IMG/VR virus record: IMGVR_UViG_3300028888_000002
Direction: 5' to 3' (one strand)
Length of the DNA stretch: 64,000 nt
Source: a virus
Lineage: Duplodnaviria; Caudoviricetes
Shown here: one piece after another, positions 7,057-63,985 of the stretch
Layout: each line of letters begins with the position of its first letter
How positions within the stretch are numbered: position 1 is the first letter of the stretch
Notes under the pieces: generated by a model
The model's database searches: none
Seen by the model: only the letters and a program-made list of their open reading frames with translations
What the model was told of the DNA's origin: nothing
Translations under genes and position numbers: made by a program

Positions 7057-7116
7057 TTTTGTTTACATTTTACTTACGCTATTGCTAAACATTGGATATT
7101 TTGTTATATTGCGGGT

Positions 7117-7320
7117 ATGACAAAACCACAGACCGATATTTCGGGAATGCTCGCTATGCTTCCCGAAGACAAGCAGAAACTTTACATTAACACGCTCTAT
7201 GCAGTAGCCAGGACAGCGATTGAAGCCCGCTGCGGTGCCCTGCGTGTTATGGACCTGGAAACCCTGCAATCGCTTGAAGACGAAAGCAACGCCCGATTTG
7301 AAGAATGGTTATTTCAGTGA
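7117..7320 (+). CDS. Small hypothetical protein
   Basis: 67-aa ORF directly after a TTGTTATATT -10 box (near-leaderless). Confidence 0.55.
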   Translation: MTKPQTDISGMLAMLPEDKQKLYINTLYAVARTAIEARCGALRVMDLETLQSLEDESNARFEEWLFQ

Positions 7321-7369
7321 CCGCTAAAATAAGTTATATTTCCTATTAAACAACTAGCAGGACACTATT

Positions 7370-7891
7370 ATGCCTAAACTGAAAATACGCCTACACGAAT
7401 CCCACGGCTCTATGAAAGTTTGGGCTGTCACGTTTGACAGCGAAGACCAGGCTAACGAAGAAGACTACTATCTTCGTGACGGTTGGGGCAGCGAATTGAA
7501 TACAGCCGTATCGGGCAACACCCTTTATGCGGACGGCAGCAAAGCCGAACAAATCTTAAAGGAATGGTTCCCTGGAAAAGAAATCCAGGTCGTAGCTGCT
7601 CCGAGGGACGTGGAACAAATGCTTCTCGGCAATTTCACCGAAACCCTGGGCGAGAGCAAAAAGAAAGAAGACGCTGCGTGGGAACCGCCCGCCCCCGTCA
7701 AAATCAAGACACTCAAAAAAGACGACCTGTTCACCTTGAAGCCGATTGAGAACCCGAAGGAATCCCAGGTGTGGTGCTTCCAGGGCTACGACCGCACTGA
7801 CAGGACCTATTGGGCTATCCGTTGGGACAACATCAGCGTAAGCCGTGAGTTTAAGGGCGACAAGGACGTTTACACGGAATTTAACTTCTAA
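7370..7891 (+). CDS. Putative internal-head polyprotein (2 modules)
   Basis: N-terminal MPKLKIRLHES; internal linker LGESKKKED between unrelated domains. Confidence 0.75.
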   Translation: MPKLKIRLHESHGSMKVWAVTFDSEDQANEEDYYLRDGWGSELNTAVSGNTLYADGSKAEQILKEWFPGKEIQVVAAPRDVEQMLLGNFTETLGESKKKEDAAWEPPAPVKIKTLKKDDLFTLKPIENPKESQVWCFQGYDRTDRTYWAIRWDNISVSREFKGDKDVYTEFNF

Positions 7892-8469
7892 TGCAGACAC
7901 TATACGTTCCGAAATATGGCATACACTATCGGGTGAACCCGAAGAACCCCTGCGAATTGCAGTGGTCCAAAAAGCCGTTCGGTCCTATGACTGCGTGGCA
8001 GAAAGCCTACACGTTCAAGCGACCAATCCGTGCTTTGGACATTGACGACGAAACGGACCAGGGCGTTGTCGTTTTGAATGACAGCACGACCTACGTCGGT
8101 TCGGGCGTTCGTGTTTGGGGCAAGAAGTTCTATACTGCGGGTTCCCGCATTTACAGCCTATACGCAATAGGGGAAAGCAAAATGACACGAAAGCTGACAA
8201 TCAAGGTCCACGAAAGCACCGCTGAAAATATACCCGACGCACTTAAAAACAAGCTCCGCAACGTTATTGGCTATGAATACGATAACGGCAAATGCGTAGC
8301 GTTTGATTTTGAGCCGACGCACGAACACAATATCGTTTTCCTTTACGACGACAACGGGACCATATTGGATTACGTCAATTTCGGGGACAACTACGACGCT
8401 GCAAAGTATCTTTACGATATGACCGCCAGGGACATTAAGGCGGGCAGAAAAGTTAGCAACCACCTGTAA
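7891..8469 (+). CDS. Putative internal-head polyprotein (2 modules)
   Basis: Internal IGESK-MTRKLTIKVHES junction. Confidence 0.7.
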   Translation: MQTLYVPKYGIHYRVNPKNPCELQWSKKPFGPMTAWQKAYTFKRPIRALDIDDETDQGVVVLNDSTTYVGSGVRVWGKKFYTAGSRIYSLYAIGESKMTRKLTIKVHESTAENIPDALKNKLRNVIGYEYDNGKCVAFDFEPTHEHNIVFLYDDNGTILDYVNFGDNYDAAKYLYDMTARDIKAGRKVSNHL

Positions 8470-8481
8470 GGGGGCGAATTT

Positions 8482-8802
8482 ATGGCAAGTATGAAAATCA
8501 AAGTCCACAGCATTTCCGAAGACAAGGGCGACGTAGATTTGGACGCTATGATGTCGGAGTTCAAGCAAGTTCTCGGCAACGACTACAAGCTGCGTGGTTA
8601 CACGCAGAACACCAAATATGAGCAGCAGCTTGTGATTGAAGTAAAGGGTGTCGGTGAATTTTTCTGTGGCTACGCATTAGTTTACAACGGTGGCAGATTC
8701 AAGGTCCGCACCTGGGACGCTGACACTAACTTTGACTTGGACTGTGATATGACGCTTTTCAAGAAACTTCAAACAATCTTCTACAAGTATTGCGGGGGCT
8801 AA
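8482..8802 (+). CDS. Putative internal-head protein
   Basis: N-terminal MASMKIKVHSISE resembles the tags of neighbouring genes. Confidence 0.7.
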   Translation: MASMKIKVHSISEDKGDVDLDAMMSEFKQVLGNDYKLRGYTQNTKYEQQLVIEVKGVGEFFCGYALVYNGGRFKVRTWDADTNFDLDCDMTLFKKLQTIFYKYCGG

Positions 8803-8805
8803 TCC

Positions 8806-9048
8806 TTGAACATTGAAGACTACCCAAAACCGATAACCATTGACGGACTAGCTCCGTTGCACCGCAAGCGACACACAGCGGGGACAAAAGAAACCTGCTG
8901 TATTTGCCACGAACGCAAGACATATCGCTACATTGGGGGTAAGCCCGTATGCAGCTATTGTTCTAGCACAGAACAAGCGGAAAGAATGGGACCAAATTGG
9001 AGCAGCAGGATTATTCGTAAAGAGGACCTGGTGTATGCTAACAATTAG
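8806..9048 (+). CDS. Small Zn-finger protein
   Basis: CCIC...CSYC. Confidence 0.55.
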   Translation: MNIEDYPKPITIDGLAPLHRKRHTAGTKETCCICHERKTYRYIGGKPVCSYCSSTEQAERMGPNWSSRIIRKEDLVYANN

Positions 9049-9092
9049 TGAAAATAACGGTCACACTGTTCGTTTAATCAAGGACTAAACAA

Positions 9093-9677
9093 ATGCCACG
9101 CAATCTTGACGACATAAATTTTCTCAAAGACAGGCATTCCCTTAATGTGATTACCCGTCTAGCCGACACGCAGGTGTATGTCGCCTTGAAGCATAGTATC
9201 ACGATTGTAGGCTACAACGCAGAAGTTTACCTGCCCGTGATTTCCGAGGGCACGGAAAACTTCCCGATTGTGGACCGTGGGGACAGTTCCATTTACAGCG
9301 GTATGCCCCTGGATGGTGCCTACAACCAGGAAGACAGGACGGGTTCCGTGTATAACGAAAAGGACCACGAATACCGTTACAAGACCGAACCCGATTTTAT
9401 CGCCCGCATAGCATTCCTGGACCCGCAGGAACAGCCTGTAATCCGTGGCGAAGAAATGTTCCTGGACGAAGAAAACACGGCATACACGCTCAAAAACACT
9501 AGCGGTCACAGAAACTATTGCCCAGGCGATATTGTGTTGCATTCCAAACTACTTGTGCATTACGGTGACGAGGACTTGTCGTATTTTGTCAAGAACATTA
9601 GGACGCTCCGCAACCCGAACGCCAAAAAAGAGAGCGAAGAATCGCTCATTTACCTGGACCTTGTGTTGCACGTCTAG
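9093..9677 (+). CDS. Hypothetical protein, possibly head-completion/neck (gp14-like)
   Basis: 194-aa beta-rich ORF with AAGGA RBS; function is inference. Confidence 0.45.
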   Translation: MPRNLDDINFLKDRHSLNVITRLADTQVYVALKHSITIVGYNAEVYLPVISEGTENFPIVDRGDSSIYSGMPLDGAYNQEDRTGSVYNEKDHEYRYKTEPDFIARIAFLDPQEQPVIRGEEMFLDEENTAYTLKNTSGHRNYCPGDIVLHSKLLVHYGDEDLSYFVKNIRTLRNPNAKKESEESLIYLDLVLHV

Positions 9678-9726
9678 CGTCAAATTGTTATTTTAGGTTT
9701 TGTATAACCATAAGCAGAGGTTGAAT

Positions 9727-10134
9727 ATGTCTTTACAGGATATAGCTAACAGAGCAAAAAGCAAACAGAACACTACTCTTTTGGAAGACATTATCTGTAG
9801 TGCTTCGGAAAAGTTGAATGACGCTTTCAGCGGTTTGGAAGACCTGCTTGACGAAGACGCTAGTGACAGCGTGTGGGCTACGCTTGACAAGTTGCCCGAC
9901 GGTCCTGTAAAGCAGGAACTTGAAGAACAGGTTGGTCGCCTTTACAAGCTAGTCAATGGCGAACTTAAAGAAGCCGACGACGACCTGTCCGCTATCGCTG
10001 AAGAAGTCAGTTGGGACAGTAACAGCGTTGACACCTGGAAAGACGTTGTTATGGCTGCACTTCCCGCAGGTGCGTCGGCTTCTATGGCTAACGACGTGGA
10101 AGCAGCCCTTGAAAACATTAAGAGCGTTTACTAA
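9727..10134 (+). CDS. Acidic helical hypothetical protein
   Basis: Start trimmed to MSLQDIA after GAGG. Confidence 0.65.
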   Translation: MSLQDIANRAKSKQNTTLLEDIICSASEKLNDAFSGLEDLLDEDASDSVWATLDKLPDGPVKQELEEQVGRLYKLVNGELKEADDDLSAIAEEVSWDSNSVDTWKDVVMAALPAGASASMANDVEAALENIKSVY

Positions 10135-10151
10135 TCAGTGAGGACACCACT

Positions 10152-11435
10152 ATGGGTTTCAAAATCAAAGTAAAGGAAGGAAACGGCTACGCAGGTGGTA
10201 AGGGCTTTCCGAAGAAAAACGGAACGTATATCATTACTGTAAAGGACCTTAAACCAGGACTTCACAAAGGTCCATATTCTGTTAAGGCACGTTGGTCCAA
10301 CTACGCTATGGATTGGGTTCTTGAAGACCTGGACGAAATCCCGCATTTGGACAGCTCCGTAATGGTTATTGACTACAAGCCGTTCAACCAGGAAGAATAT
10401 GACCGCCTGCGTGAACAGGAACAAATCCGTGACCTCGGTTCCGTCCGCAGAAAAGAACCGTTTGACATTCCCGTGGCAAAGGCGTTCCGTGGGGAATCTT
10501 TCTACTCCCAGGGCAACCGTGACGGTCGCAAGTATGCCCCGATGAAGACCCAGGAATCGTTCCCGAACCGTGCAGCGTTCCTGTCTTACAAGAAAGGCTA
10601 CAACGAAGCCCTTGACGGCATTTACGAAGAAACGGGCGACCCCGACTTTGACAAGGAAGTTAAGGACCTTAAATCAAAGCCTGGTATGGACAGCCTTGTT
10701 TCCGCTTTGGACGGCTTGACCGACGAACAGCTTGCCTTGCTTGAAAAGGGCTTTGGCGACGGTGAATATGCCGAAAAAATGAACACTGCCGTAATGGATA
10801 TTAAGGCAAAGGACCTGCACCCGACGCAGAACGAAATTGACGTTGGCAAGTCCCTGTCTTACCAAATCAGCGGTAAGAACCCCGACCAGGTTAAGCAAAT
10901 CCTTGATGGCGGTCCTGTCACCATTAACTTGCCGTTGGTCGTCTATGACTACAACGGAACGTATTACATAGTGGACGGGCACCACCGTTGGTCCCAGGTG
11001 TTCTTGCTCAACCCGAACTGCCAAATCAACAGTATCGTTTTCAAAAATTCCGCAGGCGACACCGCCCAGGACCCCGCAGATATGCTGCGTGACTTCCAGG
11101 GTGCTATCGCTATCGCAAACGACGGTGAAGTTCCGCAAAGCACCGTCAAGCCTGGAATGAATATGTTTGATTGGTCGTCCGACCAACTCCGTGACTACCT
11201 GGAAGAAAATATCCAGGACGGTATGATTTCCGCTTACCAGGATTTCTACAACTCCGAAATTGACAAGGAAGACATTGAAAATTCTGTTGTCAGTAACGCA
11301 GGCTTGATGAAGAAATCCAATAAGCCTATCAATAACGCCCCTAGCCGTGCTGTTATGCCACAGACCGACACGGGCGTTGACAAGACGGGCGTTGCGGGTC
11401 TTGAAATCGCAAAGAAGGGTATGACCGACCTTTAA
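10152..11435 (+). CDS. Polyprotein with C-terminal ParB/sulfiredoxin-like domain
   Basis: MGFKIKVKE tag; LHPTQNEI and YIVDGHHRW ParB/Srx-type motifs. Confidence 0.75.
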   Translation: MGFKIKVKEGNGYAGGKGFPKKNGTYIITVKDLKPGLHKGPYSVKARWSNYAMDWVLEDLDEIPHLDSSVMVIDYKPFNQEEYDRLREQEQIRDLGSVRRKEPFDIPVAKAFRGESFYSQGNRDGRKYAPMKTQESFPNRAAFLSYKKGYNEALDGIYEETGDPDFDKEVKDLKSKPGMDSLVSALDGLTDEQLALLEKGFGDGEYAEKMNTAVMDIKAKDLHPTQNEIDVGKSLSYQISGKNPDQVKQILDGGPVTINLPLVVYDYNGTYYIVDGHHRWSQVFLLNPNCQINSIVFKNSAGDTAQDPADMLRDFQGAIAIANDGEVPQSTVKPGMNMFDWSSDQLRDYLEENIQDGMISAYQDFYNSEIDKEDIENSVVSNAGLMKKSNKPINNAPSRAVMPQTDTGVDKTGVAGLEIAKKGMTDL

Positions 11436-11448
11436 TGGAGCGTGTGAT

Positions 11449-12525
11449 ATGAACCAACTTGAACAGCTTGAAGTTTATCTTAAACACCTGGGTCGTCCCT
11501 ATGTGATTAAGAACGCTGACCCGAAAGCGTTCAACAAAATCCCCTATACCGACGAAAACGGCAAGGACAACGAAGTTGAATACACAAAGGTCGTCACGAT
11601 TGACAGCCCCGAATCCGTAAAGGATTATTACCCGAAGATTGACCTGTGGTATATCCCGTCTTTGGATAAATTCGTAGAACACGGAAGTGCTACGGATGGT
11701 GAAACCAACGCACTGCAAGCAGACACCGCAAGGGACATCCTGGACTATATCGGGTATGTCTATTGGGAAATGGAAGACCTGGGCGACCAACTTGACAACT
11801 CCACCAAAAACACCGAAAAACGTTTTAGCAATTCCAAAAAGGAAAGCAGTATGAAAACCTACGAATGCTCTATGCAGAAGAAAATTGAAAGCCTCGCCAA
11901 AAAGCGTTCCGAAAAGCGGACCGTGACGAAAAGCTACGACGTTTACAAATACGACGAACTTTCCGACGACGCAAAGGCAAAGGTCAAGGATTTGTTCTTG
12001 CAGTGGCGTGGCGAAGACGGTGACATTTTCAAGGAAGACTGCGAAAACAGCCTTGCAGAAATGTTCCCGAACTCCGATTTGAAAGTGCAGTATTCCTTGA
12101 CCTACTCCCAGGGCGACGGCTTCAACACCTACGGCACCTTGAACATCAAGGACCTGCTCAACGCAGATTTAAGCAAATACCCGCTCAACGATTCGGGCAT
12201 TACCGCACCTGCAAACAAGGACGCTATCCTTGCTGCTTGCGACAAGGCTGACGTTTACGACATTGACCTTGAAGAAAACCGTCGCTACGGCTATTCTTTG
12301 GCTGACCGCCTGGAAGTCGTCCCGAACAACGACGAAGACCTCACCGACGAAGACACCGCCCTGTTGAGCGACCTTGAAAACTTTGCCCGTGAAGTAATGG
12401 AAGCAATCAATAGCAAGTTTGAAAAGAACGGCTATGACTACTTCTACGAAATGAGCGAAGAAGATGTCCGTGATATGGCAGACGCAAACGACTACGAATT
12501 TACCGAAGACGGTGAATTAGCCTAA
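11449..12525 (+). CDS. Polyprotein with a widespread phage/plasmid acidic C-terminal domain
   Basis: Linker SKKESS-MKTYE...KIESLAKKRSE; domain VYKYDELSDDAK...SQGDG...ANDYEFTEDG. Confidence 0.75.
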   Translation: MNQLEQLEVYLKHLGRPYVIKNADPKAFNKIPYTDENGKDNEVEYTKVVTIDSPESVKDYYPKIDLWYIPSLDKFVEHGSATDGETNALQADTARDILDYIGYVYWEMEDLGDQLDNSTKNTEKRFSNSKKESSMKTYECSMQKKIESLAKKRSEKRTVTKSYDVYKYDELSDDAKAKVKDLFLQWRGEDGDIFKEDCENSLAEMFPNSDLKVQYSLTYSQGDGFNTYGTLNIKDLLNADLSKYPLNDSGITAPANKDAILAACDKADVYDIDLEENRRYGYSLADRLEVVPNNDEDLTDEDTALLSDLENFAREVMEAINSKFEKNGYDYFYEMSEEDVRDMADANDYEFTEDGELA

Positions 12526-12535
12526 CAGGTGAGAA

Positions 12536-13558
12536 ATGCCACACAAAGCGTTCCTTAAAAAGAAGTCACTTCTTGACAGGTTCAAGGACGACCACGAACG
12601 GACGGGCTTCATACAGTCTGCCCGTGCGAAGCATACCTGGAACAATCCGCTTACCAGGCGTAAGCGGACAAAGGAACTCAACGGGTGGATTAAGTCGTTC
12701 GCAGGCAAGAACCATATACGCAAGCTGTCCAGGTTCAACGCACAGCAAGCGGGGCGGTATGAATCCTTGCAGGTAGCTCACCCCGACGTGGAGTTTGACT
12801 GCCTGCGTTATGCCGACACGCTTGAACTGCCGAACGGTGTATGCGTGAAAGTCTATCCGACAATCCGCTGCCCCCGCAGGTGTGCGTTTGTTTTCCGTGT
12901 AATGGGCTTCGGTGAAGTGGACCCCGACGTGAACAAGAATGCGGGAAAACTTAACTATGCCATACACGGGTATTACCCCGTATATGGTCTTGAACGCCAA
13001 CCGTCCGAGGAATTTGACATTTACTGCGACGACGTTAGCGAACTACAAAAATGGTCCAACTGCAACGGTTGGGGTATGGGTGTAGGTCCGTCGGCTTCTT
13101 CTATGGAAGTTGCCAGGGAAGTCGCAAAGGGCAAAGAAACTATGAAGAACGAAAAGGCTATACCCATAAACTTCAATCTGTGCTACACGTTTGACCTTGA
13201 CGACGAACTTGCTAAAAAGTTTACCGACGGTGCCAAAGGCAATAACAAAATATCCGTCCAACAGAACGACGGATATACCGACGTTTTCTTTGATAAACTA
13301 GACGACCTCGTTGACTTCCTGGACGAAGTTGCAGTTGGGGCAGATAGTGACAAGGTTGACAATTCGTTCCGTTATGCAGTCTTGAATTGCAAACGCAGCA
13401 GGATTGACCCTGCCGACTTACAGCCGTGTGCCGACAAGTATGGCGTAAAAACAAAGATTGAAAAGTCTATGAACCAAAACGGTTTACCCGAATACGAAGT
13501 CACGCTATATAAGGACTTTGAAGACGTGTCCGCAACGCTTGTGGACTTTGGATTTTAA
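12536..13558 (+). CDS. Multi-domain protein with basic N-terminus (possibly prohead core/internal)
   Basis: Arg/Lys-rich N-terminus ending GRYES, second junction TMKNE. Confidence 0.65.
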   Translation: MPHKAFLKKKSLLDRFKDDHERTGFIQSARAKHTWNNPLTRRKRTKELNGWIKSFAGKNHIRKLSRFNAQQAGRYESLQVAHPDVEFDCLRYADTLELPNGVCVKVYPTIRCPRRCAFVFRVMGFGEVDPDVNKNAGKLNYAIHGYYPVYGLERQPSEEFDIYCDDVSELQKWSNCNGWGMGVGPSASSMEVAREVAKGKETMKNEKAIPINFNLCYTFDLDDELAKKFTDGAKGNNKISVQQNDGYTDVFFDKLDDLVDFLDEVAVGADSDKVDNSFRYAVLNCKRSRIDPADLQPCADKYGVKTKIEKSMNQNGLPEYEVTLYKDFEDVSATLVDFGF

Positions 13559-13570
13559 CGGAGGCTATCT

Positions 13571-15361
13571 ATGGCTAAAATTACTGTAAACAGAAAAGTT
13601 TTTAAGGGCTTTAGCTCCGAAAGCAAAAACGAAACAAAGTTTGACCCGTCGCAATATGACTATTTCAAGGCAAGCTACACGCTTGACGGCACCAACCGTG
13701 TAAAGAACACCAACGGTATCGTTGACGCACAGGGAACGCTTGAAATGGCACAGCGACACGGTGCAACCAACCTTAAATTGGTAGGTGTCAAGGACGGCAC
13801 CGAAACCGATATTCCGTTGAGCGACGTAGGTATTTCCGAAAGCAAGGACGAAGCTATGTCCTTGAAAGGTTTCCTTGAAACCCTGGAAGAAAAACTTGTA
13901 AAGCAGTTTGACCTTGACGAAGAAGAAGTGAAGAATTACCTGGACACTCACACCCAGGAAATGCAGGAACTTTTGGACGACAAGGAATTGTCCCTCAAGG
14001 AAAAGGTGCTTTTCGTGCGTAGCGAAATCACGGGCGAAAAGGACGAAGCCAAAGAACCCGCAGAAGAAAAGTTGGGCTACGAAAAGGGACATAAAAACAG
14101 CAAAGGCGAAAACGCTCCGTGGGTAATTCGCAGCCACGAAGACAACCGCATTCTTGCGTCGTTCGCAAAGAAAACAGACGCAGAGGAACATTTGAAGCGT
14201 ATGAAACAGTATAGCAAACAGGAAAGTATGTCCGCTGACGAACTTGACAAGTATATCAAGGACGTAAAGTCCTTGCTCAAATCCAAGTATGGTATGGACT
14301 TCAACGACAAGGACACCTGCCGTCTTAACGTCGGTTGGTTGGAAAAGTTGGACGCTATGTTCTACCAGGGCAAACCCGTTGAAGACGGTGCAAAGGAAGT
14401 CGCAGCATTCTGTGGCTACAACAAGAACGAATCCAAGCAGTCCGAAGCGAACGGACCTTTTGACGCACCTATCAAGGATTGGTATATGGGTGCATACAAG
14501 GAAGACGACCTGGGCGACAGGCTCAACGGAACGTTCAAGGGTGCCCTCCAAACCTTGATGCGTGGCGACGACATTTACGACTACATTGGTGTAGGCGACT
14601 CCCTTATTCGTGAACGCCTGTTTAGCAAACTTGCGGAAATGCTTGACGTTGACTACGACGAAATCTACAACGTGTGGCTTAACGAGGGTGCTGCAAGCAA
14701 CGAACTGACTGCCAAAATTAACAAGATTGGCATAAAGCGAACAAGGACTATCCCGCCCACTATCAAGGACAAGGTGAACAAACTAGGTAGGGGCGTATTA
14801 CCACCGAAAATCGTAAAGGTTACGGGCGAATCCAAGAAATCCGAACGCCTGTTCAATAAAGCCGAAATGGAAAAAATCGCATTGTCCGAAGCGTCTAGCC
14901 TAGACAACTATCGCAAAGACGTTATTTCCGAACTTGCGGTGTCGTTCCATTATGGTGAAGACGGGGCAACCAAACTAGCCAACAAATACAGTGATACTAT
15001 AAACGACGCTTACGTTGAAGGCGAATCGCTCCCGTATGAAACGGCAAGGCTAATCGCCCGTCAAGACGGAAACGGCTACGCCAACGAAAGCAAGAAACAG
15101 GAATCCCGTAAGTCCGAAGTTCGCCTGGAACTCATTGACACAATCGTGGTCCCGAAGTGGCTGTGGGAAGCATACAACTTCGGAAACGAATACGGTGAAG
15201 ACCTGGACGACCACGAACAGAACATTCTTTCGGAGTTCAAGGAAAAGTATGCCGATTGCCACCTTGACGACGAAGACGAAGAATCCTACTTCAGCAGCTA
15301 TAACGACTTTGACAGTTATGGCGGTCAGTGCTACACCGTAAAGGTGTATAAGGAAAAGTGA
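13571..15361 (+). CDS. Large acidic polyprotein, about 7 modules separated by ESK-x-SE linkers
   Basis: Linkers at 13616, 13835, about 14213, 14426, 14825 and 15083; one module (IKDWY...GVGDSLIRERLF) resembles polyvalent-protein domains. Confidence 0.85.
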   Translation: MAKITVNRKVFKGFSSESKNETKFDPSQYDYFKASYTLDGTNRVKNTNGIVDAQGTLEMAQRHGATNLKLVGVKDGTETDIPLSDVGISESKDEAMSLKGFLETLEEKLVKQFDLDEEEVKNYLDTHTQEMQELLDDKELSLKEKVLFVRSEITGEKDEAKEPAEEKLGYEKGHKNSKGENAPWVIRSHEDNRILASFAKKTDAEEHLKRMKQYSKQESMSADELDKYIKDVKSLLKSKYGMDFNDKDTCRLNVGWLEKLDAMFYQGKPVEDGAKEVAAFCGYNKNESKQSEANGPFDAPIKDWYMGAYKEDDLGDRLNGTFKGALQTLMRGDDIYDYIGVGDSLIRERLFSKLAEMLDVDYDEIYNVWLNEGAASNELTAKINKIGIKRTRTIPPTIKDKVNKLGRGVLPPKIVKVTGESKKSERLFNKAEMEKIALSEASSLDNYRKDVISELAVSFHYGEDGATKLANKYSDTINDAYVEGESLPYETARLIARQDGNGYANESKKQESRKSEVRLELIDTIVVPKWLWEAYNFGNEYGEDLDDHEQNILSEFKEKYADCHLDDEDEESYFSSYNDFDSYGGQCYTVKVYKEK

Positions 15362-15383: not shown

Positions 15384-15414
15384 GAGGCTCCCGTCCGAAA
15401 GGGCGGGTGCCTTT
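15384..15414 (+). terminator. Intrinsic terminator
   Basis: GGCTCCCGTCC-GAAA-GGGCGGGTGCC followed by TTT. Confidence 0.65.
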
Positions 15415-15447
15415 GCTATTGACCGTTCACGGATAATTTGTTAGATT

Positions 15448-15887: not shown

Positions 15888-15960
15888 TATTTTAACAATA
15901 CCTGTTGACATTCAGCAGGTATTTTATTATATTGTAGGTGTAACCACAACCGAGGATAGC
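15888..15960 (+). promoter_or_regulatory. Terminator-promoter-leader cassette
   Basis: TTGACA 15905-10, 17 nt, TATATT 15928-33; hairpin 15897-15908/15912-15923; leader AACCACAACCGAGGATAGC. Confidence 0.8.
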
Positions 15961-18658: not shown

Positions 18659-20461
18659 ATGGCTGAAAGCGGACTTGCAGGATTAAGCACGGCAGACTTG
18701 TATAAGGCTGCTGCAATAGCCGAGGGCTATGAATCCGTCCCTGTTGACATTGAAACGTTCATTAACGACCCGTTCTACATTGGCGAAATCTACGGTGAGG
18801 GTCGTGTCTATCCCTATTGGTTGGACAAGCTGAAAAAGCTGTTCCCGAACCCGCTTTACAGCCCGTTCATTGAAGTCTGCATTACGGGGTGTATCGGTGC
18901 GGGTAAGTCCACGGTGTCCATTATCGGGGTCCTTTATGACCTGTATAGGGTGACGCTGCTGAAAGACCCGCACAAGAAATTCAAGCTAATACCGACCACG
19001 CCTATCGTGATTACGCTCATTACCGCAACTATGGACCTGGCGGGTGCCGTCCTTGCGGACCAACTTATAGACGTTATTGGCTGCTCCCCGTATTTCCGTT
19101 CAAAGCTGCTTCCAGGCAAGGGCGACAAGATAGATGAAGAAATGTTTCCCCACCACGTAGGTATCGCCTACGGTTCCCGTATGCGTCACTCTTTGGGCAA
19201 GGCTGTCATTGGGGCTATCATTGACGAAGCGAACTTCCAAAACGCAGTAGCGGACCAGGCGGTGCAGAACTACAACAGCATCCGTCGTCGTATGTTTTCC
19301 CGTTTTATGACTAAAGGCGGTGAAGTGCCCTGCCGTATGTGGGTCGTGTCGTCCCGAAACGAAAGCACGTCGTTCCTTGAAAGCCATATTGACGCAGAAC
19401 GCAACAACCCGAAAGTCGCTATCTTTGAGCCTGCCATTTGGGAAGTCCAGGCACACAAGGGTATTTACAGCGGGGCGACCTTCCCCGTCTTTATCGGTTC
19501 CGACATTGAGCAGCCGAAAGTCATTACAAGCGACGCAGAACTTGACGACTACCAGGGTCGTGTTATCCAGGTCCCCGTTGAATACCGAAAGGACTTTGAG
19601 AACAATTTGCCTGGTGCCTTGCAGGATTTGGCGGGCGTGGCTACCCGTAACGGTGTGAACCTAATCTACAACGTGGAAGCCCTGGATAGGTCAATGTGCC
19701 TGGAAAACTGTATGACTACGGACGAACTGCACTTGACCTTGAACGACAACGACCAAATCGCTGACTTCTACAAGGGGAACCTTCCGAAAGGCAAGTATTA
19801 CGTCCATTTGGACGGTGGCTTGCGTAGCGACCGTTTCGGCTTCGCTATGAGCCGTGTCACGGAGCAGATAACGGTCACGACCACTTCTGCCGTTAGCGGT
19901 GTGGAAGTGAGCAAGATTAGCCCCGCAGTAGAAACCCCGCTTGTGTTCGGTATCAAGGCGTTGCCAGGGTCCGAAGTCCCGTTTTGGAAGGTCCGTGTGT
20001 TCCTGGTTTACCTGCGTAGCCAGGGCGTGAACATAGCCTTGATTACGTGCGACGGCTACCAATCTGCCGATATGATGCAGCTACTCACGAAGTTGGGATT
20101 TAACGTGAAATACGCTTCTGTGGATAAGACCAAAGACCCGTATTTGAAGTTGAGCAGCAACATTCTTTTGAGTTTGATTAAAATGGCGAAGTCCCGTATT
20201 TTGAGGACCGAACTAATCAACCTGCAAAACCTACCGAAGAAGATAGACCACCCTGCTACAATCGTCGTGGACGGGAAGCAGGTTGCGGGTGGCAAGGATA
20301 TTGCGGACGCTGTGGCTTCTAGTTCCTACGAAGCTATCTGTGCTTCTATGACCCTGGGTGCGTCGTCGCTGCTCCAAATGCAGCAGTCAAAGCCTACCCA
20401 AATGACTATGCACCAACGCCAGGAATACGTTATGGAACACTTTTTTAAAATGAAAAGGTAG
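18659..20461 (+). CDS. terL: Terminase large subunit
   Basis: Walker A GCIGAGKST, Walker B AIIDEANF, nuclease motifs VHLDGG, DGYQS and GKDIADAV. Confidence 0.93.
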   Translation: MAESGLAGLSTADLYKAAAIAEGYESVPVDIETFINDPFYIGEIYGEGRVYPYWLDKLKKLFPNPLYSPFIEVCITGCIGAGKSTVSIIGVLYDLYRVTLLKDPHKKFKLIPTTPIVITLITATMDLAGAVLADQLIDVIGCSPYFRSKLLPGKGDKIDEEMFPHHVGIAYGSRMRHSLGKAVIGAIIDEANFQNAVADQAVQNYNSIRRRMFSRFMTKGGEVPCRMWVVSSRNESTSFLESHIDAERNNPKVAIFEPAIWEVQAHKGIYSGATFPVFIGSDIEQPKVITSDAELDDYQGRVIQVPVEYRKDFENNLPGALQDLAGVATRNGVNLIYNVEALDRSMCLENCMTTDELHLTLNDNDQIADFYKGNLPKGKYYVHLDGGLRSDRFGFAMSRVTEQITVTTTSAVSGVEVSKISPAVETPLVFGIKALPGSEVPFWKVRVFLVYLRSQGVNIALITCDGYQSADMMQLLTKLGFNVKYASVDKTKDPYLKLSSNILLSLIKMAKSRILRTELINLQNLPKKIDHPATIVVDGKQVAGGKDIADAVASSSYEAICASMTLGASSLLQMQQSKPTQMTMHQRQEYVMEHFFKMKR

Positions 20462-20482
20462 CTATCGGTCTATATTACAAGT

Positions 20483-21424
20483 ATGAACGTTTGCGATTTA
20501 GATATTGAACTTTGGAAGTTTCGGGACATTTACTTTGACGAGGGACCCCACGTCTATACGGACTCTTTGGGGACCAAATACACGTCCGTCACCACGTTCG
20601 TGCAGCAGTGCGGTGAACACCTGGAACTTGAAAAATACGTGGGCGAGTTCTCACTGCAAAGCGGTGTCCCGAAGGACGACCTGTTTGCTATCTTTGACGG
20701 CAGTTTTAAGGATTTGTCGCTTCCCGTAATTTACGAAATGCTTACGTGCGACAGGGCTGACGTTCCCGAAGACTTGCTGAAGGCTTTGGTTGCCCGTGAC
20801 AAGTATAAGTTCTGCGACATTTTGAAATGGCGTGAAATCGCACAGAACTACGCCACGAAGCACAATATGAACGTTGCCGACGTGCAGGCTATGTGGGACA
20901 AGAACAAGAACGAGGCTGCGTCTATGGGAACCCAGGTTCACGCCTATATGGAAAACCTGTGGCGACGTAAGCACTACGAACCCGAAGTTCCCGTGGGTGA
21001 CTACGAAACCGTCCGAAAGAACGGGTTGGAAGCCTACAAGTATCTGTGCCGTCGGTTCGTCCCTATCCGTAACGAATTTATTGTCTATAAGCCCGAATGG
21101 GCTTTGTGCGGGACGATTGACTTTCTGTGTTGGGACCGTGCCGACGATTGCATAGCCATTTTGGATTGGAAGACAAACAAGAAAATTGACAGGGAAAACC
21201 AATATCGCAGGTGCGTGGGTCCGCTTGACGGATTGCCCGATTGCAACTTCACGCACTATTCTGCTCAATTAAGCACCTATAAGCTGCTCATAGAGCGAAT
21301 GACAAACCTGCGTGTTGAAGAATTGGCGTTGGTCCACTTGAAGCGTGACGGTTGGGAGTTCATACCCTGTATGGACTTGAGCGTTGAAATAGGTGCCTAT
21401 TTGGGCAATAGAAACAAGGGGTAA
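20483..21424 (+). CDS. PD-(D/E)XK exonuclease
   Basis: SVTT, GTQVH, E...GTID...ILDWKT, QLSTY motifs. Confidence 0.88.
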   Translation: MNVCDLDIELWKFRDIYFDEGPHVYTDSLGTKYTSVTTFVQQCGEHLELEKYVGEFSLQSGVPKDDLFAIFDGSFKDLSLPVIYEMLTCDRADVPEDLLKALVARDKYKFCDILKWREIAQNYATKHNMNVADVQAMWDKNKNEAASMGTQVHAYMENLWRRKHYEPEVPVGDYETVRKNGLEAYKYLCRRFVPIRNEFIVYKPEWALCGTIDFLCWDRADDCIAILDWKTNKKIDRENQYRRCVGPLDGLPDCNFTHYSAQLSTYKLLIERMTNLRVEELALVHLKRDGWEFIPCMDLSVEIGAYLGNRNKG

Positions 21425-57569: not shown

Positions 57570-58776
57570 CAAAATGCCCGATGGACGCTGACTTCCACAA
57601 TAAGTGTCTATTGGGCATTTGCTATTATATGGTTGAAGTTAAGACATACAGATACAAGTTATACAATCGGGATGCCTTGCAGTATCTTGATAGGATTCTT
57701 GTAATTTCAAGTCATATCTACAACCATTGCATAGCACTCCATAGAAAGTATTATGCACTGTATCATAAGTCTTTACACAAATATGCCCTGTCAAAGCATT
57801 TAACAAAATTAAAGAAAAGATATACGGAATGGAACGAAGTTCCATCACAGGCTATCCAAGACATTACAGATAGGATAGATAGGGCATATAGGTTATTTTA
57901 TGCGAAATTAAAAAACAGTATAAAACCTAGCCCACCACATTTTCAAAAATCTTCAAAATACAGGTCTTTTACAACAAAGCAGTGTGGGTATAAATTTCAC
58001 GACGGAAATAAAGTCCGCATAGGTGTAAAAGAGTTTGCCTATTGGAACAGTCGTCCGTTTGACGGTAGAATTAAAACACTGACAGTAAAACGCAAGAGCA
58101 ATGGTTACTACATATACGTTGTCGTTGAACAGGAAAGCAAGACCGAAACACTAGCAAAATCGGGTAAAATCGTTGGCTTTGATTTCAGCCTAAACAACTT
58201 TCTTGTGGCATCCGACAACAGTGATTGCAGTATTCCAAAATTGATGCGTAAGAACCTAAAATCCCTGCGGAATTTGAGCCGAAAATACTCCCTGTCTAAA
58301 GGGAAACGAGGTTCGCTCCACAGGCTACAAAAACTGCACGAAAAGATAACGAATCAAAGGAATGACCTGCATTGGAAGTTGGCACACAGGTTGTGCAAGG
58401 CTTACGATGTAATGGTGTTTGAAACCCTTGATTTGGCTAGTATGGATAGACGGTTCAAGAAATCCATAAACGATTTCGGATTCAACGCTTTCCTGTCTAT
58501 ACTAGAATACGTGGCACACAGGACGGGCAAGACCGTTATGTATGCTGACAAATACTTTGCTTCGTCGCAGTTATGTAGTGACTGCGGTTACAAGAACGCA
58601 GCATTGAAAGACATAAGAATCCGTGAGTGGGTTTGCCCTAATTGTGGTTCTCACCATAACAGGGATTTCAACGCTGCACTGAATCTACAAAAGGTAGGGG
58701 CATCTACCTTTAGCCAATGTTGCTCAAATTGAGCAACCGCTAGAATCCCACGACTTGAATCGTGGGTGTATGCCAA
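57570..58776 (+). mobile_element. IS200/IS605-type element carrying a solo tnpB
   Basis: Left hairpin AAATGCCCGATGGAC/GTCTATTGGGCATTT; right end AGAATCCCACGA-CTTGAA-TCGTGGG-TGTATGCCAA. Confidence 0.65.
57629..58732 (+). CDS. tnpB: TnpB RNA-guided nuclease, intact D-E-D
   Basis: KTYRYKLY, VGFDF, VFETL, CSDC...CPNC, RDFNAA. Confidence 0.92.
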   Translation: MVEVKTYRYKLYNRDALQYLDRILVISSHIYNHCIALHRKYYALYHKSLHKYALSKHLTKLKKRYTEWNEVPSQAIQDITDRIDRAYRLFYAKLKNSIKPSPPHFQKSSKYRSFTTKQCGYKFHDGNKVRIGVKEFAYWNSRPFDGRIKTLTVKRKSNGYYIYVVVEQESKTETLAKSGKIVGFDFSLNNFLVASDNSDCSIPKLMRKNLKSLRNLSRKYSLSKGKRGSLHRLQKLHEKITNQRNDLHWKLAHRLCKAYDVMVFETLDLASMDRRFKKSINDFGFNAFLSILEYVAHRTGKTVMYADKYFASSQLCSDCGYKNAALKDIRIREWVCPNCGSHHNRDFNAALNLQKVGASTFSQCCSN

Positions 58777-61595: not shown

Positions 61596-62231
61596 ATGCA
61601 GTATGTAAAGGACGATTCCCTTGTCAACTTCCCGTTTTGGAGCGGTGCGAAGTCCAATGCAGATATGCTTACCTACGACGAATTGCAGCAGTTGGACGAC
61701 GTGCTGCCCGAATACTTTGACACGGGTGATGGCAGACTTCCGACCGAAACCGAAATTAACGATATGTTTTGGTTTGAGTTCGCCACGGTTTGCGAAGCTA
61801 TTGGCTTGAAGTATGACGCAGACAAGGACGAAATTATCCGTGATGGTGACGACGACAGCGACGAAAGCCGTAAGAAGCGTTCCGAAGCCAACGGCAACGA
61901 CAAGGTTGGTAAGCAGAATTTCACCTATGCAGAACTTGAAGATGCCTGGAACAAACTCAACGACCGCATTCAACGTGACCCGTTTGACAAGGACAATCCC
62001 CCGTCGGGTGGTTACGATATTCGCAACGGCTATTTCTGTGGCGAGCGTGATTGGAACGAATGGCATATTGACTTTACCCTTGACGCTGTTAAGAAAGCAC
62101 TTGAAGAAGTGGCTGAACCGATTAGGGAAGGCGACCTTGAAGTGTATTACAATGACAAGGACAACAATCAAGCCGATTCCGATAATCACGGTATCTTTAT
62201 CATTGACGGCAAGATTGACACCATTTACTAA
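61596..62231 (+). CDS. Two-module acidic polyprotein
   Basis: FWSGA...TETEINDMFWFE domain, linker DESRKKRSEA (61860-86), second domain. Confidence 0.75.
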   Translation: MQYVKDDSLVNFPFWSGAKSNADMLTYDELQQLDDVLPEYFDTGDGRLPTETEINDMFWFEFATVCEAIGLKYDADKDEIIRDGDDDSDESRKKRSEANGNDKVGKQNFTYAELEDAWNKLNDRIQRDPFDKDNPPSGGYDIRNGYFCGERDWNEWHIDFTLDAVKKALEEVAEPIREGDLEVYYNDKDNNQADSDNHGIFIIDGKIDTIY

Positions 62232-62944: not shown

Positions 62945-63985
62945 ATGCAGATTGCAGAAGACTATATTCCGTTTAAATGTGAGTTCATTGACGACATTTC
63001 CCGTGTTGACGAATCCGCACAGTCCGAAGTCGCAAAGAGCGGTGGCACCATTCTTGCCATTGTCAAGGGTCAGCATTTCTGCCCTGGCAAGGTGAGCCGT
63101 AATCACCGTCTTTATACAGAAGAACTTTGGGAAGTTGCAGGCAAGGACGAAGACGTGCAGCGTAAGCTGACCAACGGTCAAATGTTCGGTCGTATCGGTC
63201 ACGAAGCCGAAATCACGGACGAAGATATTGCTGAAGGCAAGTTCTCGCATATTACCCGTAACATAGATTGGAAGACGGGTATCGCTGAATCCGTTATCTA
63301 CAATACGGATATGGGTAAGACGCTATACACCATTCTTCGTGCGGGCACCACTATGTATGTCAGCTCCCGTGCCGACGGTGACTACGAAGGCAAGGACGAA
63401 GACGGTAACGACATTCTTGACCCGAAGACATACAAGCTAGAACGCTTTGACTTTGTGCAGGACCCTGGGTTCCTGGACGCAAAGCCGAAAATGATTTCCG
63501 AAAGCAAGAAAAACGAAAATGTTGAAGAAGCCGTGAACGAACGTGTCGCAGAATCCCTGCTTTCTCTTGCAAAGGAATTGGGGGCACCCGTTGAACTTGA
63601 CGGCAGCACCTACGTTGTAGAAAGCCTGGAAAAGAAAACCGTTGAAATGACAAATTGTGACAACGGCACGGGCGACACCTACAAGTTTGAAGACTTTACC
63701 GAAGTGACTGAAGATATTAAGCAGTCTATCGTGAAGTTCGTTGAAGGCTTGCAGGACGAATTGAAGCAGTCCGAAGACACTATCCGTGAATTGAAGTTCG
63801 CCAACAAGAACGGCTTGAACGAAGATTACGTGAAAGAACGTCGTCGTGCAGGTGCTACTTACGAAGCTATTGAACGTGAGCAGCCTGCACCGCAGACCTT
63901 TAAGGTCCTGGAAGCAAAGGCACCCGCCCGTGCAGCCGAAGACAACGACGGGTCCTTGATTGGTTACATTCTCGGCAGCAGGTAG
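62945..63985 (+). CDS. Prohead core protease (T4 gp21-like) with C-terminal scaffold-like extension
   Basis: SRNHRLY, GRIGH, SH, GKTL, VSSRADG, FDFVQDPGF motifs. Confidence 0.9.
   Translation: MQIAEDYIPFKCEFIDDISRVDESAQSEVAKSGGTILAIVKGQHFCPGKVSRNHRLYTEELWEVAGKDEDVQRKLTNGQMFGRIGHEAEITDEDIAEGKFSHITRNIDWKTGIAESVIYNTDMGKTLYTILRAGTTMYVSSRADGDYEGKDEDGNDILDPKTYKLERFDFVQDPGFLDAKPKMISESKKNENVEEAVNERVAESLLSLAKELGAPVELDGSTYVVESLEKKTVEMTNCDNGTGDTYKFEDFTEVTEDIKQSIVKFVEGLQDELKQSEDTIRELKFANKNGLNEDYVKERRRAGATYEAIEREQPAPQTFKVLEAKAPARAAEDNDGSLIGYILGSR

Follow-up and report, generated by a model that had tools for sequence, protein, structure and literature searches.

The DNA analysed here (the window, 64,000 nucleotides, nt) is IMG/VR record IMGVR_UViG_3300028888_000002, from an uncultured phage. 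Positions 7117-15361 hold a cluster of eleven genes, all on the + strand, several of whose proteins carry a short recurring peptide, E-S-K-K-S-E, and near the far end of the window lies a gene for a prohead protease of the T4 gp21 (S77) type. The original prediction, made from the letters of the window, was that unrelated small domains are strung together at ES(K/R) linkers, cut apart in the capsid and injected as anti-defence effectors. The ES(K/R) strings that it quoted are all present. In open reading frame (ORF) 13571, ESK lies at nt 13619, 13838, 14429, 14828 and 15086 and ESR at 15101; ORF 11449 reads NSKKES...CSMQKKIESLAKKRSE at amino acids (aa) 128-155; and DESRKKRSEA is found at 61860-61889. 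One correction is needed, as MTRKLTIKVHES, taken to be the start of an ORF, lies within ORF 7891 (aa 98-109), immediately behind IGESK.

The window was compared with two relatives. G001 is a 101.6-kb IMG/VR record with 94-98% DNA identity to the window across the cluster region. G002 (IMGVR_UViG_3300028914_000054; 215,686 bp; 99% complete) has a protease that is 90% identical in protein sequence to that of the window. Three further relatives, L012, L013 and L014, were used for the gene order of the head module. Megablast of the cluster region against cultured phages gave no match. Pfam and PHROGs recognised almost no families in the cluster, apart from the ParB-like domain of ORF 10152 and, in the C-terminal half of ORF 11449, a PHROG family without a name, and searches of PDB and the ESM Atlas by sequence or feature with ORF 11449, ORF 13571, the capsid protein and the protease returned nothing usable. 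The features are listed in Table 1.

Table 1. Features of the operon and head module. Coordinates are those of the window unless another genome is named; an arrow marks the presumed cut.
Feature	Position	Strand	Details
Sigma-70-like promoter heading the operon	7082..7110	+	TTGCTA-17-TATATT, TG-extended
Two-module protein	7370..7891	+	tag A MPKLKIRLHE↓S (7370-7402); joint LGE↓SKKKED (7643-7669)
Two-module protein	7891..8469	+	joint then internal tag: IGE↓SK-MTRKLTIKVHE↓S (8167-8217)
Single-module protein	8482..8802	+	tag A variant MASMKIKVHSISE (8482-8520)
Two acidic proteins, 194 and 144 aa	9093..10134	+	no tag, no joint
Protein with a ParB-like nuclease domain	10152..11435	+	tag A variant MGFKIKVKE (10152-10178); exchangeable N-terminal module
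Two-module protein	11449..12525	+	junction NSKKES...CSMQKKIE↓SLAKKRSE = tag B (aa 128-155, nt 11830-11913)
Protein with basic N-terminal leader, then acidic modules	12536..13558	+	leader ~70 aa (12536-12745)
Seven-module polyprotein, 596 aa	13571..15361	+	homology blocks start or end at every joint
ORF 13571 joint 1	13613-13633		SSE↓SKNE
ORF 13571 joint 2	13832-13855		ISE↓SKDEA
ORF 13571 decayed joint	14030-14074		TGEKDEAKEPAEEKL; relatives have GESKEPADEK there
ORF 13571 joint 4	14216-14230		SKQE↓S (aa 216-220)
ORF 13571 joint 5	14423-14449		KNE↓SKQSE↓A
ORF 13571 joint 6	14822-14848		TGE↓SKKSE↓R
ORF 13571 joint 7	15080-15121		ANE↓SKKQE↓SRKSE↓V
Tag B, window	11866-11898		ORF 11449, aa 140-150
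Tag B, G002	genes 5288, 105221, 105704, 151763, 160528, 187316, 195534, 202073
Tag B, L012	13452, 14577, 19730
Head-module two-module protein	61596..62231	+	joint SDE↓SRKKRSE↓A (61857-61889)
Prohead protease, T4 gp21 / S77 type	62945..63985	+	catalytic domain aa 16-184; 160-aa C-terminal extension
Probable self-cleavage site of the protease	63494-63517		I-S-E186↓S-K-K-N-E

The modular structure is clearest in ORF 13571. An exhaustive profile search with this protein found 1378 relatives, which match it piecewise. The ends of 219 matched stretches cluster at aa 85-96, 151-168, 211-253, 283-300, 415-438 and 499-517, and these clusters coincide with ISESK, the decayed joint, SKQES, NESKQSEA, GESKKSE and NESKKQESRKSE. 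Every ES[KR] site of ORF 13571 is at a homology boundary, which bears out the predicted joining of unrelated small domains at recurring linkers. Modules C, E and G also exist elsewhere as stand-alone proteins of 62-127 aa, a point that the original prediction had proposed to check. Module E is found in addition in P0048, a classical polyvalent protein of 2183 aa with LPD3, LPD25, ArdC-N and MPTase-PolyVal domains; a Pfam scan of its stand-alone homologues matched no family.

A clean collinear alignment of 28 rows allowed aa 405-596 to be modelled with AlphaFold2. The model has a helical domain at aa 430-499 and an alpha/beta domain at aa 519-595, both with a predicted local distance difference test score (pLDDT) of about 85-95, and pLDDT falls below 50 at the joints (aa 405-428 and 502-515). 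In this model, therefore, the two joints are disordered stretches between confidently folded domains. Together with the ends of homology, this places the linkers at domain boundaries and not inside folded domains. A single-sequence model of the whole of ORF 13571 (mean pLDDT 42) was too poor to use except for the coil at the joints. Fold searches with modules F and G gave no PDB match and a weak likeness to small uncharacterised phage proteins (DUF6926). Taken together, the data show that the cluster proteins are chains of small, independently folding, exchangeable modules.

Comparison with G001 shows one such exchange. G001 has an extra 88-aa CxxC...CxxC module, ending in GVSESKGPT (G001 site L006 10330-10600), which is absent from the window at the decayed joint. 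The indel is flanked by a direct repeat, GGACCC(G/A)CAGAA, whose copies GGACCCGCAGAA and GGACCCACAGAA (G-P-A/T-E) are identical at 11/12 nt. The repeat suggests that the joints also act as recombination points, which fits whether or not they are cut. ORF 10152 differs in a similar way: in G001 its N-terminal ~110 aa are replaced by an unrelated stretch of ~190 aa containing HESKQSEA.

A short boundary element stands in front of each module; its last residue is Glu, and a small residue comes next. There are three kinds: tag A, which is N-terminal (M-x-K-[LM]-K-I-[KR]-[VL]-H-E↓S); tag B (C-S-M-Q-K-K-[IK]-E↓S-L); and the internal joint (x-E↓S-K-K-S-E↓[GSAV]). Tag B, in its longer form C-S-M-Q-K-K-[IK]-E-S-L-x-K, opens some proteins and lies inside others, mostly with K-K-x-S-E behind it. 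In some proteins tag and joint are merged, as in RLHESKKQE and KVRESKKNE. The G002 homologue of ORF 7370 (gene 100903) has both, MSKMKIKVHES and FESKKSESA. A few proteins (G002 genes 20097-20657 and 85067-85504; P0027) end in ...ESK or ...ESKS right before the stop codon, as though the joint were split and its first half formed the C-terminal end of the preceding module.

One module may stand behind different elements. Module A follows SSESKNETK in the window, MAKITE in G001 and TIKVHES in G002. The C-terminal module of ORF 11449 (aa 135-358), which matches phrog_5162, stands alone in G002 as gene 160528 of the head module. ORF 61596 has a C-terminal module (aa 100-211) that lies behind DESRKKRSEANG in the window; in G002 it is gene 100490 of the accessory cluster, behind the tag MSNMKITLHES. 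As judged from these sequence matches, modules move between the cluster and the head module, and tag and joint are interchangeable in front of the same module.

In ORF 7891 the internal tag is preceded by DNA (GGGGAAAGCAAAATG) that resembles a ribosome-binding site plus ATG, read in frame; its counterpart, G002 gene 101676, has MESK-LKIKVHE at the equivalent place. Two genes may have fused here, or translation may start internally and yield the C-terminal module on its own. We rejected the idea that ESK is in general a translated ribosome-binding site, apart from possibly this one case.

The motif is far more frequent than composition predicts. ORF 13571 has six ES[KR] where 0.64 are expected (20,000 shuffles, p = 5e-5), and six ES[KR]x(1-3)E where 0.18 are expected. 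In the region of ten ORFs there are eight ES[KR] where 1.65 are expected, and elsewhere in the window the count agrees with expectation (nine against 8.4), so that the enrichment is not window-wide but is concentrated in the cluster and in two genes beside the protease. Over the whole window the count is 17 against 10 expected. This lack of a window-wide excess is what a chance effect of Lys-, Glu- and Ser-rich sequence would give, but chance is refuted by the shuffles, by the position of the sites at module boundaries and by the 150 best homologues of ORF 13571, in which ES[KR] occurs 183 times against 52 expected; we regard its probability as negligible.

Conservation was scored in the same 150 homologues. 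The logo reads E-S-K-K-S-E, with E, S, K (76%) or R, K (43%), S (30%) and E (47%). Residues before the first Glu (the unprimed side) are weakly conserved and the primed side, S-K-K-S-E, is better conserved. Both Glu residues are kept strictly: ESKK is found 67 times and DSKK never; ESK[KQ]SE 48 times and DSK[KQ]SE and ESK[KQ]SD never; and K[KQ]SE 99 times against two K[KQ]SD. Asp is slightly commoner than Glu overall in these proteins. The second Glu is followed by G, S, A or V in 77% of sites, and upstream of module G it is invariant in 28/28 rows, even in rows without the first ES.

The protease gene connects the motif with head assembly. Its product matches phrog_207 (head maturation protease) with E = 5.9e-21 and is about 40% identical to annotated phage prohead proteases. 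Its match to Pfam PF03420 (S77) has E = 1.6e-4 and 21.6 bits, below the 27-bit cut-off; several of its homologues carry PF03420 in precomputed Pfam annotations. An alignment of 46 proteases shows no variation at His86, Ser140/141 and Glu186, and Ser187 is retained in at least 90%. When T4 gp21 (sequence from NC_000866) is aligned with the protease of the window, His86 falls on His85, Ser140/141 on the VSSRG motif and K-M-I-S-E186↓S on K-E-I-T-E187↓S, the last of these fitting the T4 L/I-x-E rule. Behind the catalytic domain, nearly all of 71 homologues (47-99% identical) read directly on with [IV]-[ST]-E-S, and this is continued by Lys in the near clade and by Leu in a distant one (I-S-E-S-K vs V-S-E-S-L). 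The 20-kb surroundings of the distant-clade proteases gave a single K-S-E-S-L-K-K site in all, too little to show that joint and protease co-vary. One homologue, P0158 (93% identical), is labelled at NCBI as a 'Clostridia bacterium' metagenome-assembled genome, which is a weak host hint or a binning artefact.

The capsid protein gene lies past the end of the window, and its family was assigned from G002, whose capsid protein matches Pfam PF07068 (38.8 bits, cut-off 24.4 bits) and phrog_138. The head block of G002 contains tagged small proteins, the protease (with ISESKKKE), a scaffold-like protein, the Gp23-family capsid protein and three chains: 468 aa with ESKKKEAKK joints, 1265 aa with six NESKKSEA-type joints and 489 aa with four joints. 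Within G002, 19/21 strict joints are in the head module and the cluster homologue, which together account for 15% of the proteome. The head module, taken to run from the protease to shortly beyond the capsid protein, has 14/21 in 10% of residues (p = 7e-8), the cluster homologue has 5/21 in 4.5% of residues (p = 0.003) and the other 300 genes have 2/21. Likewise, 16/20 KSE[AGSV] sites are in the head block and cluster, where composition predicts 1.2 and the density is 20-30 times that found elsewhere. The motif is therefore nearly absent from the other 85% of the proteome, a check that the original prediction had called for. L012, L013 and L014 share one gene order, in which the protease comes first, then tagged proteins and polyproteins, the scaffold, the capsid protein and further polyproteins. 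In three lineages the capsid protein has a conserved (K/R)(R/Q)-Y-E-S in its N-terminal region (aa 60-66), eight columns from T4 gp23 Glu65↓Ala66 in an alignment that is approximate. A Glu-Ser core is hence common to the joints, the protease junction, the N-terminal tags and the Y-E-S of the capsid protein.

Because the E-S-K-K-S-E joint is also found at the protease's own presumed self-cutting site, the chains are probably loaded into the capsid and cut apart. The tags and joints would be recognition and cleavage sites for the T4 gp21-type prohead protease, which would cut after Glu. Chains would be loaded into the capsid, the activated protease would cut them to single modules and free itself at its own I-S-E186↓S-K-K junction, and the joints would double as short recombination joints at which modules are inserted, deleted or swapped. 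On balance we consider it more likely than not that the joints are prohead-protease sites of capsid-loaded proteins, as the sequence comparisons suggest.

Several points weigh against this reading. Two more distant protease lineages have tags near the protease but no ESKKSE polyproteins, and most modules are acidic, with an isoelectric point (pI) of 4-5. The remaining points fit a view that we think unlikely: that the joints are uncut flexible linkers and recombination joints of early-made, polyvalent-type proteins that act whole in the cytoplasm. Common descent, and recombination between repeats that encode the linkers, would then maintain the motif. The promoter of the operon is of the sigma-70 type, and the cluster may be expressed early; it belongs to a family with about 30 copies in G002, mostly before small-gene operons, which is absent from the head module. 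Hydrophilicity and disorder, both seen in the joint motif, are expected of any linker. The repeat at the 88-aa indel shows that recombination alone could keep the joints alike. The third residue before the cut (P3) is Lys in 28% of joints, and Leu, Met and Val combined reach about 30%. Most joints consequently depart from the L/I-x-E rule of T4 and the S/A/G-x-E rule of phiKZ and SPN3US, so that this lineage would need a subsite preference unlike either; L/I-x-E does hold at the protease junction (I-S-E) and nearly so in tag A (V/L-H-E). Finally, module E and the weakly matched ParB-like domain have counterparts in the polyvalent-protein repertoire.

Other results speak against uncut linkers. 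A pure linker should tolerate Asp, and none occurs in 48 ESK[KQ]SE sites. The motif is concentrated in the head module, the same Glu-Ser core is at the invariant protease junction, and N-terminal tags substitute for joints before the same modules. Maintenance by DNA repeats is not favoured either, since the Ser codons of the joints are mixed (AGC and TCC), which indicates that the motif acts at the protein level. In G002, 30/30 joint Ser codons are TCC or AGC, and 77-79% of Ser codons before Lys or Glu are so genome-wide; this context explains most of the bias (residual p about 6e-4) and leaves no strong DNA-level constraint.

After cleavage in the prohead the pieces would be either kept or expelled. 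That they are kept and injected as effectors is rather doubtful. By analogy with scaffold fragments, the acidic modules could be expelled and not kept with the DNA. This is the core of another alternative, in which the chains are prohead-core or scaffold-like filler that is loaded and cut but whose acidic pieces exit before DNA packaging and are not delivered. It shares the cleavage step with the favoured reading and differs from it only in what becomes of the pieces, so the probabilities of the two overlap; taken by itself we judge it distinctly unlikely. The low pI agrees with it, as does the location of modules in the relatives between protease, scaffold and capsid protein, and in T4 the core proteins (gp22, gp67, gp68) are cut to several fragments that leave the head (PMC9026906). 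Inert filler, however, should hardly contain a ParB-like nuclease domain or a module in common with ArdC-type polyvalent proteins; the modules also vary widely, fold on their own and are exchanged quickly, and part of the pool is in a separate operon distant from the head genes.

The proposed injection and anti-defence role of the modules found no support, no module having a demonstrated anti-defence function. Small anti-restriction proteins that mimic DNA are typically strongly acidic as well, a likeness mentioned as a passing thought. The original interpretation as a whole thus stands in part: the mobile folded modules, the head-linked motif and the protease junction are upheld, and injection and anti-defence are not.

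The better conservation of primed-side S-K-K-S-E compared with the unprimed side, which is unusual for gp21-type sites, would also suit tags and joints that are signals for other machinery, either a different protease (of host or phage) or a targeting or chaperone system without cleavage. We consider this very improbable, as searches of the cluster and the polyproteins with Pfam and PHROGs turned up no further peptidase domain and the sole place outside the cargo with an invariant motif is the prohead protease itself.

The other genes of the operon add details. The ParB-like nuclease domain of ORF 10152 (aa 213-311, nt 10788-11084) matches PHROG 1033 with E = 8e-6, and its Pfam match is below the cut-off. 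The two proteins without tag or joint have G002 homologues in genes 103253 and 103898. The leader of ORF 12536 (aa 1-70), MPHKAFLKKKSLLDRFKDDH...RKLSRFNA, is basic; it also heads P0026, P0032 and P0037 of other phages, before modules B, C or G of ORF 13571, and from its sequence may be a third type of leader or a DNA-binding head piece.

The cluster is a single operon, followed by a weak terminator at 15392-15409 and two further promoters. Sites of its promoter family in the window are 7082-7110, 7040-7012 (-), 15419-15447 and 15905-15933. The family has a strongly conserved consensus, CCTATTGACA-N9-GGTATTTTGTTATATTTAGG, and a conserved leader, GACAACCAC...AACCGAGGATAA. A -10-only variant ([AT]AGTTATATT) is found at 7331 in the window, before ORF 7370, and at 100164 and 162779 in G002, and occurs in the structural region too. 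We tried the promoter classes as a clue to timing and rejected them, as neither the host-type family nor the -10-only variant points to early or to late expression. A TnpB-like gene of the window (57581-58732; OrfB_IS605 and a Cas12f1-like TNB domain) precedes the head-module genes by a few kb.

A bolder reading, which is possible rather than probable, is that of plug-and-play cassettes, in which one Glu-ended peptide would be capsid address, cut site and recombination joint. Any small module could then pass from a separate operon to the head module or back, be strung into chains of whatever length, be loaded, and be released to travel as a free protein with the DNA. Should cutting in the prohead prove true, a large phage could enlarge and reshuffle its capsid-carried set simply through recombination of small modules at one constant peptide, and no cargo protein would call for a new targeting signal. 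The capsid-targeting idea of T4 would be extended from single proteins to exchangeable polyproteins, and the concept of the polyvalent protein would gain a concrete release mechanism. The short tag and joint would form a portable pair, testable for the loading of foreign proteins into capsids. The signature (E-S-K-K-S-E with strict Glu, plus tags) marks likely virion cargo in uncultured rumen phages, in which most genes are unannotated.

A search of the literature found no description of exchangeable modules strung by one fixed joint in a phage, and no proteomic data for this lineage. The nearest known system is that of the T4 internal proteins IPI, IPII and IPIII and of Alt, from which gp21 removes a capsid-targeting sequence (CTS). 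T4 internal proteins are basic and stay with the DNA. To our knowledge the tag A leader, K-x-K-I-K-V-H-E, has no resemblance to the T4 capsid-targeting leader. Both systems have a gp21-family protease, a gp23-family capsid protein, a leader of about ten residues ending in hydrophobic-x-Glu, a Glu that is strictly kept just before the presumed cut, an I-[ST]-E↓S behind the protease's catalytic domain that is homologous between the two, and cargo genes that vary between relatives. gp21-family proteases cut after Glu, and Asp at P1 of the T4 CTS blocks processing but not targeting (PMC9026906). The cargo here, in contrast, is often a chain of up to seven modules with a fixed internal joint, which is unreported for T4; P3 of the joint is usually Lys and not Leu or Ile; and the modules are acidic. 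For the present phage, packaging and cleavage are predictions.

The giant phages phiKZ, 201phi2-1 and SPN3US, whose inner-body and ejection proteins are processed, likewise have jumbo genomes and diverged gp21-type proteases (gp175/gp245, cutting after S/A/G-x-E or A-x-E) that are processed at their own C-terminus. Such C-terminal processing is reported for gp21, phiKZ gp175 and 201phi2-1 gp268, and SPN3US gp245 cuts itself after A-x-E (PMC10052503). In these phages many head proteins have several cleavage motifs and much protein is packaged with the DNA (PMC10052503, PMC9026906). Their cuts mostly remove N-terminal propeptides from one mature protein, whereas the motif here separates unrelated exchangeable modules and has its conserved part on the primed side (S-K-K-S-E). 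The polyproteins of RNA viruses also have one chain, repeated short sites between units and a viral protease that frees itself, but the protease and domains are unrelated, and cutting here would occur inside an assembling DNA-phage capsid.

In content the chains overlap with the polyvalent proteins (Iyer et al., 2017, PMC5512222), which, in the passages of that paper drawn on here, have many unrelated domains per polypeptide, are predicted to be packaged in the capsid when encoded by phages, and may have their domains released by peptidases. With seven separately matching segments ORF 13571 falls within the range of 2-15 unrelated domains, and there are several two-module proteins besides. The predicted likeness to polyvalent domains is supported for the ParB-like domain of ORF 10152, a weak match, and for module E, through its presence in the LPD3/LPD25/ArdC-N/MPTase-PolyVal protein, but not for the other modules; Pfam LPD families had no match among the proteins of the window. 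No embedded peptidase was found with Pfam or PHROGs in the ten ORFs or in the G002 head-module polyproteins, so that release, unlike that of polyvalent proteins, would depend on the separate prohead protease. The modules here are also much smaller and mostly of unknown families, and the same passages of Iyer et al. (PMC5512222) contain neither a uniform short joint nor interchangeable N-terminal tags, and the word 'linker' is absent from that paper. By analogy, then, the system would resemble T4 in its CTS with processing by gp21, and phiKZ and SPN3US in their multi-site propeptides, with a content that overlaps that of polyvalent proteins. It is set apart from all three by its one fixed internal joint, its interchangeable leaders and joints, its lack of an embedded peptidase and its conservation on the primed side.

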